From contig JAACPR010000003.1 in NCBI GenBank assembly GCA_009995365.1, forward strand, positions 405-64,404: a DNA stretch of 64,000 nucleotides, read 5' to 3'. Position 1 is the stretch's first letter, and the number at the start of each line of letters is the position of its first letter. Source of the stretch: Candidatus Parcubacteria bacterium. Lineage in GTDB: Bacteria > Patescibacteriota > Minisyncoccia > Phycocordibacterales > JAACPR01. The translations under genes were made by a program, and so were the position numbers. The notes under the pieces are model-generated. The model was not told the DNA's origin and searched no databases. It was given only the letters and a program-made list of their open reading frames with translations. Positions 3,525 to 36,484 of this stretch are shown piece after piece.

Positions 3525-4052
3525 ATGCGCAATAAAGCCTTCACTTTAATAGAATTACTCGTTGTAATTTCAATAGTTAGCCTTCTTTCTAGTGTGGTTA
3601 TTTCTGAATTAAATAAGAGTAGAAATGAAGCTAAGATGAAAGTTTCTTTGGAGAAAGTCAGAATTTTAAGAGATAACATAATAATTGCTCAAGGTAATAC
3701 AGGAAATACTCTTAGGCAGATTACTGGTTCAGGATGTAGTAGGTGTCACAGTAGTTGTAGTAATACTGATTTAAAAAATGTTTCAACAGAATGTTATTCT
3801 AGATGGGTTAATGCTGTGGATGATATTTTTAATGTTTCTGGGGAGATTTATAGGAGTAGCAAAGAATCTCTGTATAGAGATGCTTGGGGTAGTCCTTTTA
3901 TATTAGATGAAAATGAAGGAGAAGTATCAACTGCCTACTGTAGAAGGGATACTTTAAATATTGTAGGACCTGATGGAGTTTACAACACATCTGATGATAT
4001 TAGAATAAATTTACCATACACAGGATATGGTCAAAAAATTTGTGATAATTAA
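3525..4052 (+). CDS. Type IV pilin-like protein with an N-terminal prepilin cleavage/methylation domain and a Cys-rich C-terminal part
   Basis: MRNKAFTLIELLVVISIVSLL is a class III signal with F+1 and E+5. The gene is inserted between rpsG and fusA, with a TATAAT -10 element at 3506-3511. Confidence 0.6.
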   Translation: MRNKAFTLIELLVVISIVSLLSSVVISELNKSRNEAKMKVSLEKVRILRDNIIIAQGNTGNTLRQITGSGCSRCHSSCSNTDLKNVSTECYSRWVNAVDDIFNVSGEIYRSSKESLYRDAWGSPFILDENEGEVSTAYCRRDTLNIVGPDGVYNTSDDIRINLPYTGYGQKICDN

Positions 4053-4201: not shown

Positions 4202-6346
4202 ATGAATCGTGATTATCCACTAAATAAAGTTAGAAACTTCGGTATTATTGCCCACATTGATGCCGGAAAAACTACAACATCAGAAAGAATTCTTTTCTAT
4301 ACCGGTGTATCTCACAAAATCGGGGAAGTTCATGAAGGTGCTGCAGTTATGGACTGGATGGAACAAGAAAGAGAAAGAGGTATTACTATTACTTCTGCTG
4401 CTACAACAGCTTTTTGGGTTCCAACATACGAAGATGCAACTGATGAATCTAAAAAAAATCGTTTTAATATTATTGACACACCAGGACACGTTGACTTTAC
4501 AGCTGAAGTAGAACGTTCTCTAAAAGTTCTAGACGGTGGTGTTGTTGTGTTTGACGGTGTTGCTGGAGTTGAACCACAATCAGAAACAGTTTGGAGACAA
4601 GCTGATAAATATGGTGTTCCAAGAATTTGTTTTATTAACAAACTTGATAGAACTGGAGCTAGCTTTGAGAAATCATTCCAATCTATTATCAAAAGATTAA
4701 GTCCTAATGCTGTTCGTGCCCAACTACCATGGGGACATGAAGCAGATCTAAAAGGAGTTATTGATCTTCTTACAATGAAAGCTTACACATTTGAAGGTGA
4801 AATGGGTAATAAAGTAATTGAACAAGAAATTCCAGAAGAATTAAAAGCGGATGCTGAAAAATATCGTAGTGAATTTATTGAAAAAATCGTTGAACAAGAC
4901 GATGAATTGATGGAAAAATTCTTAGGTGGAGAAGAAATTGCTTTGGATAAACTAAAAGCAGCACTTAGAAAAGGTGTTATTGCTAATCAAATCATTCCAG
5001 TATTTACAGGTTCAGCACTTAAAAACGTCGGAGTTCAAAAAGTTCTAGATGCCGTTGTAGATTACCTACCAGCTCCAGACGATGTTCCCCCAATTAAAGG
5101 AGAAAATCCAGATACAGCAGAACCAATGGAAAGAAAATCATCAGATGATGAGCCATTTGCTGCTCTTGCTTTCAAATTACAGACTGACCCATTCGTAGGA
5201 CAGCTTACTTTCTTCCGTGTTTATTCGGGAACAGTATCAGCAGGTTCTTATGTATATAATTCATCAACAGGAAAAAAAGAAAGACTTGGTCGTATCGTTA
5301 GAATGCATGCAAACGATAGAGAAGAAGTGGATACAGTTTATGCTGGAGAAATCGCAGCTGCTGTAGGTCTAAAAGAAACTACAACTTCTGACACGCTTTG
5401 TGATGAAAATAATCCAATTATTCTAGAAAAAATTGAGTTCGCAGAACCAGTTATTTCTATGAGGATTGAGCCAAAGACAAAGGCTGATCAAGAAAAAATG
5501 GGTATGGCTCTTAGTCGTCTTTCATCAGAAGACCCAACTTTCCGTGTTCAAACTGATCAAGAAACTTTGGAAACTGTTATTTCAGGTATGGGTGAGCTTC
5601 ACCTTGATATTATTGTTGATCGTATGAAAAGAGAATTTAATGTCGAAGCAAATGTTGGTAAACCACAAGTTGCTTATCGTGAAACTATTCAAGGAAATGG
5701 TGAAGCAGAACATAAATACATCAAACAATCCGGAGGTAAAGGTCAATACGGTCATGTTAAGATTCGTGTTAAACCAATGGATATGACTGTTAACGCAGAA
5801 GAGCTTCCAAAGAATATTAAAAGAGATGGAGGATTTGAATTTGTTAACTCAATCAAAGGTGGTGTTATTCCAAACGAATTCATTCCAGCCTGTGAAAAAG
5901 GATTTAAAGAAGCTATGGAGCGCGGTATCGTTGCAGGATACAAGATGACAGATGTTTCAGTAGAGCTATACGATGGTTCTTACCATGATGTTGACTCTTC
6001 AGAAATTGCTTTCAAACTTGCGTCTTCAATGGCTTTCCAAGAAGCTGCTAGATCAGCTAGACCAGTTCTACTAGAACCTATTATGAAAGTAGAAGTTACT
6101 TCACCAGAGGAATTTACTGGAGATATTACAGGTAACCTTTCATCAAAGCGTGGACAAGTAGAAGGTATGGATGATCAAGGAAACGGAATCACTGTTATTC
6201 ACTCAAAAGTTCCTTTGTCAGAATTGTTCGGTTACACAACAACTCTTCGTTCTATGACACAAGGTCGTGCTTCAGCAACTATCGAACCGGATCATTATGA
6301 TGTTGTTCCAGCTAATGTTGCCGAAGAAATTAAAGCAGGGAAGTAA
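4202..6346 (+). CDS. fusA: Elongation factor G
   Basis: [26 protein letters not shown] and the full 714-aa EF-G architecture. Confidence 0.95.
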
Positions 6347-6354
6347 GCACACCA

Positions 6355-6490
6355 CCAACATTAACTTATAGAAAACACGAATCAGCGACCTACTCGGGTC
6401 GCTGTTCTCGTCTCGGACGAACTCTTAATTTTATCGACATAGTAGTTCGACCCGTTCGTCCTGTGACGGGTTTTCTATAAGTTAATGTTT
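6355..6490. repeat. About 135-nt palindromic structured element immediately downstream of fusA. A roughly 20-bp outer stem encloses nested hairpins.
   Basis: The outer arms are aacattaacttatagaaaac and gttttctataagttaatgtt. Inner hairpins are cagcgacc...ggtcgctg and cggacgaac...gttcgtcc. Confidence 0.5.
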
Positions 6491-6536
6491 AGTGGTTTAT
6501 TAAAGTTTTACAAGAAAATACTCAATCCAAAAAAGC

Positions 6537-6564
6537 TTGACAAAAGTTGTGAATATGTTATACT
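6537..6564 (+). promoter_or_regulatory. Strong sigma70-like promoter (TTGACA, 16-nt spacer, TATACT) upstream of the DGR target gene
   Basis: Near-consensus -35/-10 elements. About 190 nt of structured leader follow before the ATG at 6756. Confidence 0.4.
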
Positions 6565-6755
6565 ATAAATATAAGTTCATTAAGAAACAAATACTTGCGA
6601 AATTGTATTTATTCAATTAGTCACAGTTTCAGGTAGCTATATTTAATTATTAACAAACAACTAGCTATCTAAAACTGTGACTAATAAAGTCCAGTATTCT
6701 AATTTAATAGATTAGAATCCACACTAAACTAATAGTTATAGAAAAGGACAATAAA

Positions 6756-7349
6756 ATGCAAAATAAATACAAAGACATCTCGTTCGGCACAGCTGAAGCA
6801 GTTTTCAACAAGTTGGGCGGTAAAGAAGGGATTGAAAAATTCCTTCGTGACGAAACCAAGGTTGTTGAGGTTGAAGTTACTGAATTCCCAGAATTCATGA
6901 CAATCAAGATCGGCACCCACGATTCGGTCGACGAACTCCGCCAGTCCCTCAAAGACAAAGGAAATCGTATCTCCAGTTACGGAAACGATATCCTTGGTAA
7001 GATCGCCCTCGCCGAAACCGAGACGGAAGTTACGCTGCACTCTGCGACGGTCAAGGAATTGACCGGCAAAGATGTTGCCAGCAATCGCGAAATCAACGAA
7101 GCAATCCGCTCGAAGGGTTACGATCTCTGCCCCGCAGAGGTGGGACCGCAACTTCGGTTGCAGTACTCTGACCAACCTTCTGGCGAATACCTACGTGTTG
7201 CGATGGAGCCAATCGCCGATTCCGACGGCGACCTCTTCATCTTCGACGTCAATCACGCCTACGATGATCGTTGGCTCGATAGCGACGGCGGGCACCCTGA
7301 CGATCGGTGGAACGGTGGCTATCGTTTCGTCTTCGTTTCTCGCAAGTAG
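6756..7349 (+). CDS. DGR target protein (variable protein) with the variable repeat at its C-terminus
   Basis: The C-terminal 133 nt are homologous to a downstream template repeat, and all mismatches sit at template-repeat adenines. The ending ...GGYRFVFVSRK is weakly reminiscent of a C-type-lectin-fold terminus. Local GC content is elevated. Confidence 0.8.
   Translation: MQNKYKDISFGTAEAVFNKLGGKEGIEKFLRDETKVVEVEVTEFPEFMTIKIGTHDSVDELRQSLKDKGNRISSYGNDILGKIALAETETEVTLHSATVKELTGKDVASNREINEAIRSKGYDLCPAEVGPQLRLQYSDQPSGEYLRVAMEPIADSDGDLFIFDVNHAYDDRWLDSDGGHPDDRWNGGYRFVFVSRK
7215..7347 (+). repeat. DGR variable repeat (VR)
   Basis: Aligns over about 133 nt with 7712-7844. About 15 differences all correspond to A in the template repeat (A to G/T/C). 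The identical GC-rich 3' end gtttcgtcttcgtttctcgcaa is an IMH-like segment. Confidence 0.85.
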
Positions 7350-7404
7350 CTTAGTGCTTTGGACTTGGTCACTCTGACCTAGTCCTTAGATACTTAGACC
7401 TTAG

Positions 7405-7443
7405 TCCCGCCCAATCGTTAGATTGGTGCGGGGCTTTTTTTAT
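7405..7443 (+). terminator. GC-rich hairpin plus T-run downstream of the variable repeat. It is a terminator and possibly the DGR homing-enhancing hairpin.
   Basis: cccgcccaatcgttagattggtgcgggg followed by cttttttt. Confidence 0.5.
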
Positions 7444-7711
7444 TGTATAAAAATTTGTTAAAATATTTTTTGGTATTAGGTGAATATCAGTATATGATCA
7501 TGGTTGTATACCACTGAATCCAGCAATATGATAAATCGAGAATGTTTGCGACTACGGTTTCAAACAGAGTGGTTTATTTGAGCTTTTAAAAAAATAAAAA
7601 TACTTGGTGTGAGGTGTTATTGTATTTAAGATACAGAATTCGATACAACTTGTAGATAATAAATTTGATTATCGATAGGTAGTGGTATGGACGACGCTTC
7701 ATACAGAACGA

Positions 7712-7844
7712 ACCGATTCCGACGGCAACCTCAACATCTTCAACGTCAATCACGACAACGATGATCGTTGGCTCAATAGCAACAACGGGCACCCTGACAA
7801 TCAGTGGAACGGTGACAATCGTTTCGTCTTCGTTTCTCGCAAAT
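7712..7844 (+). repeat. DGR template repeat (TR)
   Basis: Near-identical to the variable repeat, with adenines at every variable position. It lies between the target gene and the reverse transcriptase. Confidence 0.85.
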
Positions 7845-7848
7845 CTTT

Positions 7849-8208
7849 TTATTTCTCTCCCGATTTATTGTTGGGAGAGTTTTGTTTTGTCAGTTGTCCA
7901 TTCCAGCCACCTAACATTTTTCCAATCTCTTCGATTTTTAGAGACAAAGCAATATACTTTTTATGATTTAAACTTTTGCTCTCCCATAAAATCATTAAAA
8001 GTATTTTGAGAGTGTCTATTTTTCTAATTCCAACACGAACATAAGGTTGTTTTTCTTTGGGACTTAAAAAACATGCTTGAGCAATCATTTCAATGCTTTC
8101 AATAAATAGTTTATCGATTTTTATACCTAGAGAATGACGATGTAGTTTTGGAATAGCTTGATAATAACTAAACCAGAGTAAATATAATTCTTTTAGTTTT
8201 TGAAGCAC
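7849..8208 (-). CDS. avd: Avd-like accessory variability determinant (four-helix-bundle, 23S rRNA intervening-sequence protein family) with a GTG start, encoded antisense to the TR-RT spacer
   Basis: 119 aa and basic. ...IPKLHRHSLG... and the C-terminal IEEIGKMLGGWNGQLTKQ resemble the bAvd/PF05635 C-terminus (…eeigkmL..). It sits between the template repeat and the reverse transcriptase. Confidence 0.65.
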   Translation of the reverse strand: MLQKLKELYLLWFSYYQAIPKLHRHSLGIKIDKLFIESIEMIAQACFLSPKEKQPYVRVGIRKIDTLKILLMILWESKSLNHKKYIALSLKIEEIGKMLGGWNGQLTKQNSPNNKSGEK

Positions 8209-8219
8209 TGGTAAAAGCT

Positions 8220-9269
8220 TTGCGGGGGGGGGGTAGACTGTTTATAGTGAGAAAAATTTTTAGACATGAATACAATGATATCATTTCTGTTGAGAATTTG
8301 TTATTAGCTTGGCAAGAATTTATTAGAGGGAAGAAAAATAGGAAAGATGTTCAAGAATTTCAATTATATCTGATGAAAAATATTTTTGAATTACATTTTG
8401 ATTTAAAAAATAAAACTTACCAACATTCGAAATATCAAAAATTCAATATTAGTGATCCAAAGCCAAGAGAAATTAATAAAGCATCTGTTAGAGATAGATT
8501 ACTTCATCATGCTATTTATCAAAAACTTTATCCATTTTTTGATAAGAAGTTTATTGGTGATTCTTATTCTTGTAGGAATGGAAAAGGAACGCATAAAGCC
8601 ATTAATCAATTTGAGAAATTTTATAGAAAAGTTTCTAAAAATCACACTAAAACTTGTTGGGTTTTAAAATGTGATATTAAAAAATTCTTTGCCAGTATTA
8701 ACCATCAGATTTTAAAGGATGTTTTAATTAAATATATTTCTGATAAAGATATTTTAAATTTATTGTCAGTGATAATTGATAGTTTTGAAACTAATAAACA
8801 TTTAATAGTTGGCAAAAATTCAAAAACTGGTCTTCCACTCGGAAATTTAACCTCTCAATTATTGGTTAATATTTACATGAATGAATTTGATCATTTTGTT
8901 AAAGGAAATTTGAAAATAAAATATTATGTTCGTTATGCTGATGATTTTGTTTTTCTATCTACAGACAAAAAATTTTTAGAAAAACTTATTCCTAAAATTG
9001 GATATTTTTTAGAAACTAATTTAAAATTAACTCTACACCCTAACAAAGTTTCAATCAAAAATTATTCATCAGGTGTCGATTTTCTTGGCTGGGTTCATTT
9101 TGATGATCATAAAATACTAAGAACTAATACTAAAAATCGGATGTTTAAGAAATTACAATTTCAGTTAGAAAAATTTGGAGAAATTAACGAAGATTCGAGA
9201 CAGTCTTATTTGGGATTATTGTCGCATGGTAATACTTATAAAATTCAACAAGAAATAAGAGGAAAATAA
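8220..9269 (+). CDS. DGR reverse transcriptase. The start is uncertain: TTG at 8220 or GTG at 8247.
   Basis: RT motifs are DIKKFFASINHQIL, the YVRYADDFVF (YADD) motif and the LGNLTSQ motif (the DGR-specific I/LGxxxSQ that replaces QGxxxSP of group II RTs). About 349 aa with no maturase or endonuclease domains. Confidence 0.85.
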   Translation: MRGGGRLFIVRKIFRHEYNDIISVENLLLAWQEFIRGKKNRKDVQEFQLYLMKNIFELHFDLKNKTYQHSKYQKFNISDPKPREINKASVRDRLLHHAIYQKLYPFFDKKFIGDSYSCRNGKGTHKAINQFEKFYRKVSKNHTKTCWVLKCDIKKFFASINHQILKDVLIKYISDKDILNLLSVIIDSFETNKHLIVGKNSKTGLPLGNLTSQLLVNIYMNEFDHFVKGNLKIKYYVRYADDFVFLSTDKKFLEKLIPKIGYFLETNLKLTLHPNKVSIKNYSSGVDFLGWVHFDDHKILRTNTKNRMFKKLQFQLEKFGEINEDSRQSYLGLLSHGNTYKIQQEIRGK

Positions 9270-9327
9270 AATCTTTCTAAAATAATAGTTTGACTAAAGT
9301 AATACAATGTATATACTTTGTATTATG

Positions 9328-9597
9328 AAAACAACAACCAGTATAAAACTAGATAAAGAGGTCAAAGAACAGGCTTCTGATTTAGCCAAGGAACTTGGAC
9401 TTTCTCTGAGTGGTGTTATTAATGCTACTCTAAAACAGTTTGTTAATGACAGGAGTGTTTTTCTGACTACTACCCCTCAATTCAATGAAAAAGCCGCCAA
9501 ACGAATGCTAAAATTAATGGATGATGCTAAAAAAGGTAAAAATCTATGTGGTCCTTTTAAAACAGATGAAGAATTATTTAAAGCATTAGAAATTTAA
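9328..9597 (+). CDS. dinJ: DinJ/RelB-family antitoxin. The ORF track starts at 9307.
   Basis: SIKLDKEVKEQASDLAKELGLSLSGVINATLKQF matches the DinJ RHH N-terminus. Confidence 0.7.
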   Translation, partial: KTTTSIKLDKEVKEQASDLAKELGLSLSGVINATLKQFVNDRSVFLTTTPQFNEKAAKRMLKLMDDAKKGKNLCGPFKTDEELFKALEI

Positions 9598-9604
9598 TTT
9601 TATT

Positions 9605-9859
9605 ATGCGGATAACTTTTCATAGGAAATTTAAGAAAAATATTAAAAAACAACCTAGAAAAGTTCAAATTAAATTTAAAAAAAGATATAAATTATTTAAA
9701 AAAGATCAATTTCATCATTCACTCAACAATCACGCTCTAAAAGGAAAATATTATGGAATTAGAAGTATTAATATAACTGGTGATATTAGGGCTCATTACC
9801 TAGAGGATGATGGAGGTGTTATTTTTCTGGATATCGGTGATCATTCTGACCTATATTAG
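9605..9859 (+). CDS. yafQ: YafQ/RelE-family toxin (mRNA interferase)
   Basis: HHSLNNHALKGKYYGIRSINITGDIRAHYL...DIGDHSDLY matches the YafQ C-terminal signature. It is adjacent to and just downstream of the antitoxin gene. Confidence 0.7.
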   Translation: MRITFHRKFKKNIKKQPRKVQIKFKKRYKLFKKDQFHHSLNNHALKGKYYGIRSINITGDIRAHYLEDDGGVIFLDIGDHSDLY

Positions 9860-9872
9860 TTTTGTCTTGATT

Positions 9873-9992
9873 AAAACCCTAACCCAAATACTATCGAGTT
9901 CCTCCGCAGACCTTCGTTGTCAATGACTTTATGTCTTGACATAAGAAGTGTCGAGGACGGGAACGAGAGAGTATTTGGGTTAGGGTTTTTTT
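9873..9992 (+). ncRNA. Terminator-embedded structured RNA element, copy 1. A conserved roughly 80-nt core sits inside a long outer stem followed by a T-run.
   Basis: The outer stem is aaaaccctaacccaaatac / gtatttgggttagggttttttt. The core ctatcgagttcctccgcagacc...gtcaatg.ctttA..cttgac.aag.agtgtcgaggacgggaacgagagag is shared with the copy at 23059-23175. Confidence 0.5.
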
Positions 9993-9993
9993 A

Positions 9994-10021
9994 TTGACAC
10001 AAAACTATCTTCTGTTAATAT
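9994..10021 (+). promoter_or_regulatory. Putative sigma70 promoter for tuf (TTGACA, 16-nt spacer, TAATAT)
   Basis: Sits immediately after the structured terminator and about 180 nt upstream of tuf. Confidence 0.35.
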
Positions 10022-10198
10022 ATTCATACGCAGATTTGCGCTTTTTTGTTATTTCGATAAGTTCGCAAAACAAAGACGTAAAAATGTGAGGACAACTTTT
10101 TTAGAGACCTTCTCGTGCTCTCTTAAAAGGTTATCCTGTATGATGCAAACGCATCTTTATTAAATTATTAAAAGTTAAAATTAATTAAAATTATTATT

Positions 10199-11386
10199 AT
10201 GGCAGATTTTGATAGAACAAAACCCCATGTAAACGTTGGAACAATTGGACACGTTGACCATGGTAAAACAACACTTACTGCTGCACTTCTAACAACATTG
10301 AACTCAGCAGGTGAAGGATACTCAGCTAACATGAAAGCTGTTGAAGACATCGACAAAGCCCCAGAAGAAAAGGCTCGTGGTATTACAATTTCACTTTCTC
10401 ACAACGAGTATGAAACTCCAGAGAGACACTATGCTCATATTGATGCTCCAGGTCACGCCGACTACATCAAAAACATGATTACTGGTGCTGCTCAGATGGA
10501 CGGTGCTATTATCGTTGTCGCAGCAACAGATGGTGTTATGCCACAAACTCGTGAACACATCCTACTTGCAAAACAAGTTGGTGTTCCAAAAATTATTATT
10601 TTCTTGAACAAATGTGACATGGTTGATGATGCAGAAATGATCGACCTAGTTGAAGAAGAAGTTCGTGAACTTCTTTCATCTCAAGGATTTGACGGGGAAA
10701 ATGCTCCAGTAGTTAGAGGATCAGCTCTAAAAGCCCTAGAAGGAGATGCTACATGGAAAGAAAAAATTATGGAACTTGCTGGACACATGGATTCTTATAT
10801 TCCAACACCAGAAAGAGAAACTGATAAACCTTTCCTAATGCCAGTTGAAGACGTGTTCTCAATCGAAGGTAGAGGAACTGTTGTAACAGGTAGAATTGAA
10901 AGAGGAAAAATCAAAGTTGGTGAAGAAGTTGAAATTGTTGGTATCAAAGATACTACAAAAACAACTATTACCGGAGTTGAAATGTTCAACAAATCTCTAC
11001 AAGAAGGTATGGCTGGAGACAACGCCGGTCTACTTGTAAGAGGTCTTAAAAAAGATGATATTCACAGAGGTCAAGTTCTAGCTGTGCCAGGGTCAATTAC
11101 TCCACACACAGAATTCGAAGCTGAAGTTTACATCCTAAAGAAAGAAGAAGGAGGACGTCACACACCATTCTTCTCAGGTTATAAACCACAATTCTACATG
11201 AGAACTACAGACGTAACTGGTGAAGTTACTCTAAACGAAGGTGTAGAAATGGTTATGCCAGGAGATACAGTTACTTTCAAAGTAAAACTATCTGCTCCTA
11301 TCGCGATGGAAGATCAACAAAGATTTGCTATCCGTGAAGGTGGTAAAACAGTTGGTGCTGGAGTTATTACAAAAGTTGTAGCTTAA
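10199..11386 (+). CDS. tuf: Elongation factor Tu
   Basis: [28 protein letters not shown] and the full EF-Tu sequence. Confidence 0.95.
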
Positions 11387-23052: not shown

Positions 23053-23058
23053 GGTCAT

Positions 23059-23175
23059 AAAAACCACACAACCACTATCGAGTTCCTCCGCAGACCTGCG
23101 GTGTCAATGGCTTTACGCCTTGACGCAAGCAGTGTCGAGGACGGGAACGAGAGAGAGGTTGTGTGGTTTTTGTGT
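23059..23175 (+). ncRNA. Terminator-embedded structured RNA element, copy 2
   Basis: Same conserved core as 9873-9992. It has a different but self-complementary outer stem (aaaaaccacacaaccact / gaggttgtgtggtttttg) followed by a T-run. Confidence 0.5.
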
Positions 23176-36441: not shown

Positions 36442-36484
36442 CTAAATTCTTTAAAAGACAAAAAAAAAGGGGGGGGTAAATAAA

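Follow-up and report, generated by a model that had tools for sequence, protein, structure and literature searches.

An intact diversity-generating retroelement between fusA and tuf in a Candidatus Parcubacteria genome, and a putative structured RNA around its template repeat

Does the DNA between fusA and tuf in a genome of Candidatus Parcubacteria hold a complete diversity-generating retroelement (DGR), and through what kind of RNA would such an element diversify its target gene? In this study, we analyzed a stretch of 64,000 nucleotides (nt) of contig JAACPR010000003.1 (assembly GCA_009995365.1, positions 405 to 64,404 of the forward strand), hereafter the window, in which an earlier note had proposed a complete DGR. 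This claim was borne out by the adenine pattern between template repeat (TR) and variable repeat (VR), by a reverse transcriptase (RT) resembling bRT of the Bordetella phage BPP-1, by an Avd protein, and by a strain variant changed at VR sites that face template adenines. The element is an intact, genuine DGR of the kind already known as common in the candidate phyla radiation (CPR). Taken as a whole, the explanation we favour, and regard as very probable, is a chromosomal CPR-type DGR in which target(VR), TR, avd on the reverse strand and RT follow one another, together with the RNA mechanism proposed below. The parts that carry it are as follows.

6756-7349, plus strand: gene of the target (variable) protein, 197 aa, with a C-type-lectin fold behind a short helical N-terminal part
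7215-7345, plus strand: VR, the last 44 codons of the target, aligned to the TR without gaps and with each mismatch at a TR adenine
7712-7844, plus strand: TR, aligned to the VR without gaps and unchanged in the strain variant L001
7322-7343 in the VR and, identical, 7819-7840 in the TR, plus strand: adenine-free segment of 22 nt, the longest adenine-free run in the TR, like an initiation of mutagenic homing (IMH) sequence
7849-8208, minus strand: avd, 119 aa, GTG start, matching PF22296 (bAvd), with homologues at the same place and on the same strand in about 40 loci
8247-9269, plus strand: DGR reverse transcriptase gene, 340 aa, with RVT_1, LGNLTSQ, YADD and a bRT match, its start placed by homology

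Direct alignment of the 133-nt repeats (7215-7347 and 7712-7844) required zero gaps at an offset of 497 nt, and the prediction that about 15 mismatches would all lie at TR adenines proved right, with 16 of 16 at template adenines. Specifically, positions 7216-7346 differed from 7713-7843 at 15 sites, every one a TR adenine, while the 131 nt contain 37 adenines (hypergeometric P = 4.9e-10); the sixteenth mismatch, at 7215/7712, is A-to-G. The spectrum over 7215-7345 comprised ten A>G, four A>T and one A>C changes, and codon position 1 or 2 was affected in 14 of 15 mismatches, the TR containing seven AAC and four AAT codons. The final lysine codon of the VR is always AAG in relatives whatever third base the TR has, so that 7346/7843 probably lies beyond the copied segment. 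A GC-rich, IMH-like 3' end had also been proposed for the repeats; its identity in both copies holds, but 7322-7345 is only about 50% GC. Since the 22-nt segment is free of adenines, a mutagenised cDNA would still match the VR 3' end perfectly, and by analogy 7322-7343 appears to resemble the IMH homology anchor. The Bordetella IMH has an adenine-free GC part and an inverted repeat downstream (PMC5758913); here, a GC hairpin (7406-7433) follows the VR and a different conserved stem-loop follows the TR. No second target of this TR was present within the 64-kb window.

The target was predicted to be a protein of about 197 aa with a lectin-fold-like C-terminus and no signal peptide, and both expectations held: an AlphaFold model built with an alignment of homologues was a confident C-type-lectin fold (predicted local distance difference test score, pLDDT, 93), whose C-terminal end is encoded by the VR, and a hydrophobic segment is absent. 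Neither Pfam nor NCBIfam has a family for the protein. Homologues of about 200 aa number more than 350, and Patescibacteria are the source of the few homologues with a named source as well as of nearly all related genome loci. These proteins combine a conserved core (LCPAEVGPQLRLQY...MEPI.DSDG) with a hypervariable final stretch of about 45 aa that closes with RFVFxxRK-stop; the exact protein of the window is NCS98761.1 (Candidatus Parcubacteria bacterium). The target is 8-14% identical to TvpA (2y3c) and Mtd (1yu0), but at 197 aa it is far shorter than these, neither a lipoprotein nor a fibre context applies to it, and it ends exactly at the VR. One member of the target cluster, P0123, runs 56 residues beyond the stop with Q at each TAG, which looks like a gene call made under a TAG-reassigned code and no true variant.

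The RT showed Pfam RVT_1 at 5.5e-27, and the two motifs named beforehand, LGNLTSQ (the DGR signature) and YADD, are both present. Its best match among solved structures was 8ub7_A (1.3e-36, 130 bits, residues 15-331), compared with 77 bits for group II intron RTs; we take this chain to be bRT because its numbering (D138, I181, G182, Q187, D215, D216) agrees with the bRT residues of the cryo-EM preprint on the Bordetella DGR (bioRxiv 10.1101/2023.10.23.563531). Relative to bRT, the window enzyme has LGNLTSQ for IGSLTSQ and YADD for YMDD, and the fingertip arginine of PKPR is conserved. Placing a DGR RT at 8220-9269 was correct as to the enzyme but not as to its start, since the TTG at 8220 is the start of the maximal open reading frame (ORF) and the homologous start, common to relatives, is the GTG at 8247. 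Likewise, the Avd gene expected between TR and RT is there, matching the bAvd profile PF22296 (2.3e-11, 44.6 bits, cut-off 40), and we add that it lies on the minus strand.

A scan of species-representative genomes found 284 relatives of the target, and the best 80 loci were compared. The order target(+), TR(+), avd(-), RT(+) recurred in about 40 of them, where Avd was 35-77% and RT 53-68% identical to the window, and adenine bias between TR and VR was seen in most related cassettes. Wu et al. 2018 (PMC5758913) report that type B3, with the layout TR-(avd)-RT, makes up 90% of the DGRs of CPR bacteria. The window has just this layout, with the TR (7712-7844, plus) upstream of a reverse-strand avd (7849-8208, minus) and the RT (8247-9269, plus) next. 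For DGR clade 2, Roux et al. 2021 (PMC8144416) describe a cellular clade restricted to Patescibacteria whose targets have no known domains, and the element fits this Patescibacteria-restricted clade. It shares with the CPR B3 and clade 2 elements of these two studies the gene order, the avd orientation, the Patescibacteria host, the chromosomal location and a small target without transmembrane segment or known domain; we found no essential difference, the window copy being the one between fusA and tuf. The DGR itself is thus one more well-resolved case of a known class. When the RT was compared with the viral contigs of IMG/VR to look for a phage origin, no relative emerged, and hence no sign of such an origin. 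Several genomes carry multiple target paralogues on separate contigs (CAYHBX on three contigs, MHMS01 on two).

Comparing about 40 related cassettes brought out four features that the earlier note lacks: a putative DGR RNA, a motif array behind the target, a poly-G tract and a GC excess in the target gene. To begin with the RNA, the roughly 270-nt "spacer" upstream of the TR is conserved across the 33 loci that we aligned from the target terminator to just past the TR. RNAalifold on these loci, together with conserved sequence, suggested the following RNA features.

7456-7464, plus strand: extended -10 box (TG-T-TAAAAT), the putative DGR RNA promoter, TGnTAtAAT in 33 loci (columns 78-90 of alignment A3)
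7472-7704, plus strand: structured 5' domain of the DGR RNA (RNAalifold, 33 loci)
7472-7521, plus strand: helix P1 (RNAalifold)
7532-7576, plus strand: helix P2 (RNAalifold)
7592-7618, plus strand: spacer-like strand (RNAalifold)
7592-7600, plus strand: 5' strand of a long-range helix (AAATAAAAA; family consensus AAATGAAGA), pairing with 7846-7854, the candidate primer strand
7607-7618 with 7693-7704, plus strand: helix P3, 12 bp, enclosing two hairpins, its 3' strand stopping 8 nt before the TR
7846-7854, plus strand: 3' strand of the long-range helix (TTTTTATTT), beginning 2 nt beyond the TR/VR homology
7855-7889, plus strand: terminal stem-loop (10 bp, 5-nt loop, 7855-7879) and U-tract, the putative DGR RNA end, antisense in the last avd codons

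Covariation alone makes the case for this structure. Across the 33 loci, 71 pairs were predicted, 54 with compensatory changes. In a 68-pair version, 96.6% of cells were paired, compared with 40-50% when the partners were slid by 1-3 columns, and double changes occurred at 54 of 68 pairs, compared with 14-27 in the slid controls; no shuffle came up to the observed values. The long-range helix (helix 7) contributed nine pairs, five of them compensatory, with 95.6% of cells paired, and the window copy pairs perfectly. At the 3' end, the terminal stem-loop is a terminator-like match in the window; its stem is kept in all 33 loci and its inner part covaries, which argues for selection on the stem-loop structure and not on the Avd tail alone. 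The -10 box precedes the first conserved RNA position by 7-8 nt. From promoter and terminator, the DGR RNA probably spans about 7472-7889.

A covariance model of 7588-7710, run over 1.26 Mb, returned 46 matches, every one within a target-family locus and on the strand of the target; 13 of the 46 lay outside the training set. In the window it matched once only. Relatives of elongation factor G (EF-G) at L088-L099, within the same 1.26 Mb, gave zero matches, as did another 0.66 Mb of EF-G control loci. Rfam, with the RT-associated motifs from Weinberg et al. 2017 among its families, gave nothing around the TR at gathering or permissive thresholds; its gathering score was reached in the window by tmRNA and one tRNA only, and its permissive search gave only spurious miRNA-type matches, on the 6616-6685 palindrome. 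Three further observations concern this RNA: TTGG is invariant within ACTTGG (7602-7607), beside the long-range helix; the related locus L044 carries tandem DGR RNA domains (9846-9972 and 10327-10453); and L064 has two full avd-RT cassettes, with RNA domains at 6453-6559 and 9806-9913.

The arrangement can be read as a permuted form of the Bordetella scaffold. In the Bordetella particle, spacer (Sp) RNA downstream of the TR forms two adjacent duplexes: the one with the TR 3' part presents the priming adenosine, the one with a segment upstream of the TR is the stop element, and a stem-loop just downstream of the TR binds Avd (bioRxiv 10.1101/2023.10.23.563531). The BPP-1 DGR (mtd-avd-TR-brt; PDB 8ub7) shares with the window adenine mutagenesis, Avd, a target with C-type-lectin fold, the closest solved RT, one strand that pairs on the one hand with the 3' region of the TR and on the other with a segment upstream of it, a stem-loop past the TR, and a hairpin downstream of the VR; the stem-loop at 7855-7889 matches the position of the Avd-binding one. 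In contrast to BPP-1, avd in the window is inverted and follows the TR, the spacer-like strand is found 5' of the TR instead of 3', as is the bulk of the structured RNA, and the 3' tail is only about 45 nt long and overlaps avd in antisense; moreover, the element is cellular and not phage-borne, and its target is no tail fibre. In the retron msr-msd RNA, the primer strand lies 5' of the template and a terminal duplex holds it to the template 3' end. The likeness to retrons is one of topology only, the candidate primer strand being 5' of the template, whereas the window RT is not retron-like (64 versus 235 bits), no multicopy single-stranded DNA is implied, and the product would be used for retrohoming into the VR.

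The mechanism that we propose would run as follows; the transcript ends and the primer and stop roles follow the analogy with the Bordetella ribonucleoprotein, where Sp pairs with the TR 3' part and with a segment upstream of the TR. First, conserved sequence suggests that a dedicated RNA of about 415 nt would be made from the extended -10 promoter (7456-7464) to the terminator (7855-7889). Second, this RNA would consist of a structured 5' domain, the TR and a short 3' tail, the structure being shown by covariation. Third, the continuous strand 7592-7618 would make two neighbouring duplexes, with 9 nt 3' of the TR and 12 nt 5' of it. Fourth, the pairing logic would be that of the Bordetella phage Sp RNA with the strand moved upstream of the TR, and the RT-Avd complex would presumably bind there. 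Fifth, the TR would be copied with misincorporation at adenines from a primer at the end of the 3'-flank duplex, the cDNA perhaps stopping at helix P3. Sixth, the cDNA would replace VR 7215-7345, with the adenine-free 22 nt of 3' homology as its anchor and the hairpin and motif array downstream of the stop codon (below) as possible guides. Seventh, about 16 residues would thereby be varied on the ligand-binding face of the target, a small protein of C-type-lectin fold that is apparently no membrane protein. The compact, delimited and covarying RNA makes the Bordetella model of cis-priming and stop testable in a rearranged form.

Several observations weigh against the favoured explanation, on the side of the RNA, of Avd and of activity. 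As to the RNA, the single-sequence fold of 7472-7890 is not significantly stable compared with shuffles (z = -1.6), and it pairs the A-rich strand with the U-tract and not with 7846-7854. The priming site (about A7600 opposite C7845) comes from geometry only. As to Avd, its score against NCBIfam DivGenRetAVD (5.4e-14, 52 bits) does not reach the equivalog cut-off of 80, and it found no sequence match among solved structures, the solved Avd included. As to activity, the same target protein, and hence the same VR peptide, is encoded on at least 25 contigs, and a 90% cluster with five members contains one VR variant only; therefore, either diversification is rare, or most cells have it switched off, or consensus assembly masks it.

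The RNA observations lend themselves to another account, in which the conserved RNA 5' of the TR is a regulatory leader (a riboswitch or protein-binding leader) or an element of transcript stability, and priming proceeds via the 3' stem-loop region alone, as in Bordetella. It draws on the minimum-free-energy fold, which picks a partner other than the proposed long-range one, on the fact that priming and stop functions are assigned to the 5' domain by geometry and analogy, and on a published survey of DGR RNAs, which reports stem-loops downstream of the TR in CPR elements as well. Nevertheless, the transcript seemingly stops about 45 nt past the TR at a conserved terminator, which leaves no room for a 140-nt 3' spacer; helix 7, which ties the TR 3' flank to the 5' domain, shows covariation; and the order of strands mirrors the two adjacent Sp duplexes of Bordetella. 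We thus regard a leader as possible, though clearly the less probable account.

A further alternative is a fossil DGR, with recognisable parts whose diversification has ceased and whose VR/TR differences are relics of earlier activity. The identical protein on so many contigs speaks for it, as does the single VR variant (2 nt) in public assemblies. This variant comes from contig L001, of another sample, which differs from the window by five single-nucleotide polymorphisms in 4.3 kb outside the VR and by two changes within it (7318 and 7320). At both positions the TR has an adenine and L001 carries the TR base, the trace that would be expected of one retrohoming event between near-identical strains. 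Against a fossil, too, the RT, avd, the TR and all RNA helices are intact, and a dead element would gather TR/VR differences outside adenines, of which there are none; we consider a fossil unlikely. The variant is a single case and one VR is common to most assemblies; the element is therefore intact and apparently was recently active, but need not be often active. A metagenome scan with an exact 34-nt pattern just upstream of the VR matched nothing.

It is scarcely credible, finally, that the RT stems from a different kind of retroelement (group II intron, retron) or from a defence system (the defence-associated DRT/UG group) and the repeat from an unrelated partial gene duplication: the top NCBIfam match is indeed the group II intron RT/maturase model TIGR04416, PADLOC gave generic RT, RT-Cas1 and DRT/UG matches (UG17 among them), and neither search returned a DGR RT model, but the profile check asked for beforehand reached no family cut-off for group II (156 bits versus 300) or retrons (Retron St85, 64 versus 235), Drt2 and Drt3a were far under theirs in NCBIfam, bRT leads the solved relatives by 53 bits, LGNLTSQ is present and Avd adjoins, Rfam scans showed no group II intron or retron RNA family, no retron or defence effector gene is present, and a plain duplication would not diverge at adenines alone (P about 5e-10).

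The chromosomal DGR is accompanied by four further signals around the target and between avd and the RT.

6537-6564, plus strand: promoter-like site upstream of the target (TTGACA, 16 nt, TG-TATACT), a consensus match only
7350-7404, plus strand: seven motifs C[CT]T[AGT]G (CTTAG/CTTGG) in an array of 55 nt, spaced 7-14 nt apart, right after the target stop
7406-7441, plus strand: GC-rich hairpin (7406-7433; 11 pairs, one bulge, loop GTTA) and T-run, read from the sequence as the target terminator
8224-8233, plus strand: G10 tract in the 38-nt gap between the divergent start codons of avd and the RT

The motif of the array averages 4.8 copies per 75 nt in the family, about eight times the 0.63 of shuffled sequences; the opposite strand has 0.17 and the region before the gene 0.35. 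The array also follows targets without an RT nearby (mean 3.7). By analogy, the hairpin at 7406-7441 is the counterpart of the inverted repeat downstream of the Bordetella IMH; relatives have an equivalent hairpin, some with the loop GAAA or GTGA. At the place of the poly-G tract, most related cassettes listed (about 37 loci) have at least six and up to 13 G, usually with TGGCAAAAG in front. The tract might serve as a switch for phase variation or as an unusual ribosome-binding site. Just one other G-run of eight or more occurs in the window, in an intergenic A9-G8 pair (36460-36476) just ahead of a terminator-like hairpin. Upstream of the target, the promoter-like site agrees with the consensus at 11 of 12 positions, has an extended -10 TG, and is the best site within 6300-10250. 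The putative 5' untranslated region between this site and the start codon holds an inverted repeat (6616-6685; 24-nt arms, 92% complementary, 22-nt loop), which could be an operator or a leader hairpin.

The target also stands out in composition. Its GC content at third codon positions (GC3) is 0.59 over 6756-7346 and 0.56 in the part outside the VR, compared with 0.16-0.24 in all neighbours, including RT and avd. GC3 of the target exceeded that of the RT in 36 of 37 related cassettes (means 0.63 versus 0.39), and the excess was found in targets without an RT nearby as well. Horizontal transfer as the sole cause of the GC-rich target was rejected, the excess being family-wide.

Tentatively, these features can be joined in one reading, which as a whole we hold to be doubtful: the accessory RNA of this large CPR DGR family would be a circular permutation of the Bordetella one, with the primer/stop strand 5' of the TR in a retron-like topology; its terminator would lie antisense in the end of avd; the length-variable poly-G would act as a stochastic switch of hypermutation; the CTTGG array would mark retrohoming targets, including distant copies without an RT; and the GC3-rich codon usage would be tied to the mechanism. 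Motif array, poly-G and avd-embedded terminator would suggest how targets are marked and how hypermutation is perhaps gated. No earlier description of the noncoding features was found in the DGR literature searched, which did not cover Paul et al. 2017.

The position of the cassette is a local curiosity that implies no new mechanism. The window has the order S12, S7, a pilin-like gene, fusA (4202-6346), an insert of 3.85 kb, tuf (10199-11386) and S10, and fusA and tuf flank the cassette as had been claimed. To call the str operon otherwise universally conserved was an overstatement, since the fusA-tuf and rpsG-fusA junctions are variable in related Parcubacteria. Among 80 metagenomic loci with EF-G 60-77% identical (L088-L167), the fusA-tuf gap ranged from 92 to 5080 nt where tuf lies downstream, and the gap between S7 (rpsG) and fusA, where S7 is present, from adjacent to 2885 nt. 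In 12 gaps inspected, the ORFs were mutually unrelated; by eye, without a family search, they resembled pyrimidine-biosynthesis genes, response regulators, membrane or secreted proteins, toxins and an acetyltransferase. Wu et al. 2018 (PMC5758913) mention five CPR DGRs whose parts are separated by ribosomal protein genes. None of the best 80 target-family loci has fusA, tuf, S7, S10, dinJ or yafQ within 9 kb.

The DinJ/YafQ pair noted in the insert is present, but does not belong with the cassette. YafQ is over its Pfam cut-off, and the DinJ/RelB-type antitoxin passes Pfam RelB (23.2 versus 22.4) and falls just under NCBIfam RelB_DinJ (43.5 versus 45.65). The pair as a part of the DGR was rejected: 0 of 80 related DGR-family loci have it nearby, and dinJ/yafQ homologues adjoin fusA in three relatives without a DGR. 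These homologues and the variable gaps show that the junctions of the str operon are a recurrent cargo site in this clade, with the DGR and the toxin-antitoxin pair as independent cargo. Such hot spots at fusA-tuf and rpsG-fusA are useful for annotating accessory genes in reduced Parcubacteria genomes.

Other elements lie at or near these junctions. The pilin-like gene between rpsG and fusA (3525-4052) has an N-terminal methylation motif. Directly after the fusA stop stands a 133-nt palindromic structure (6357-6489; outer arms of 23 nt, -64 to -66 kcal/mol), whose sequence is unrelated to that of the element preceding tuf and which was not found in the EF-G relatives. The latter element, between yafQ and tuf, is the first of two copies of a long hairpin of about 115 nt (9873-9990 and 23058-23171; about -68 kcal/mol, a T-run after each). 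The two copies have a common core, and their outer stems differ in sequence yet stay complementary.

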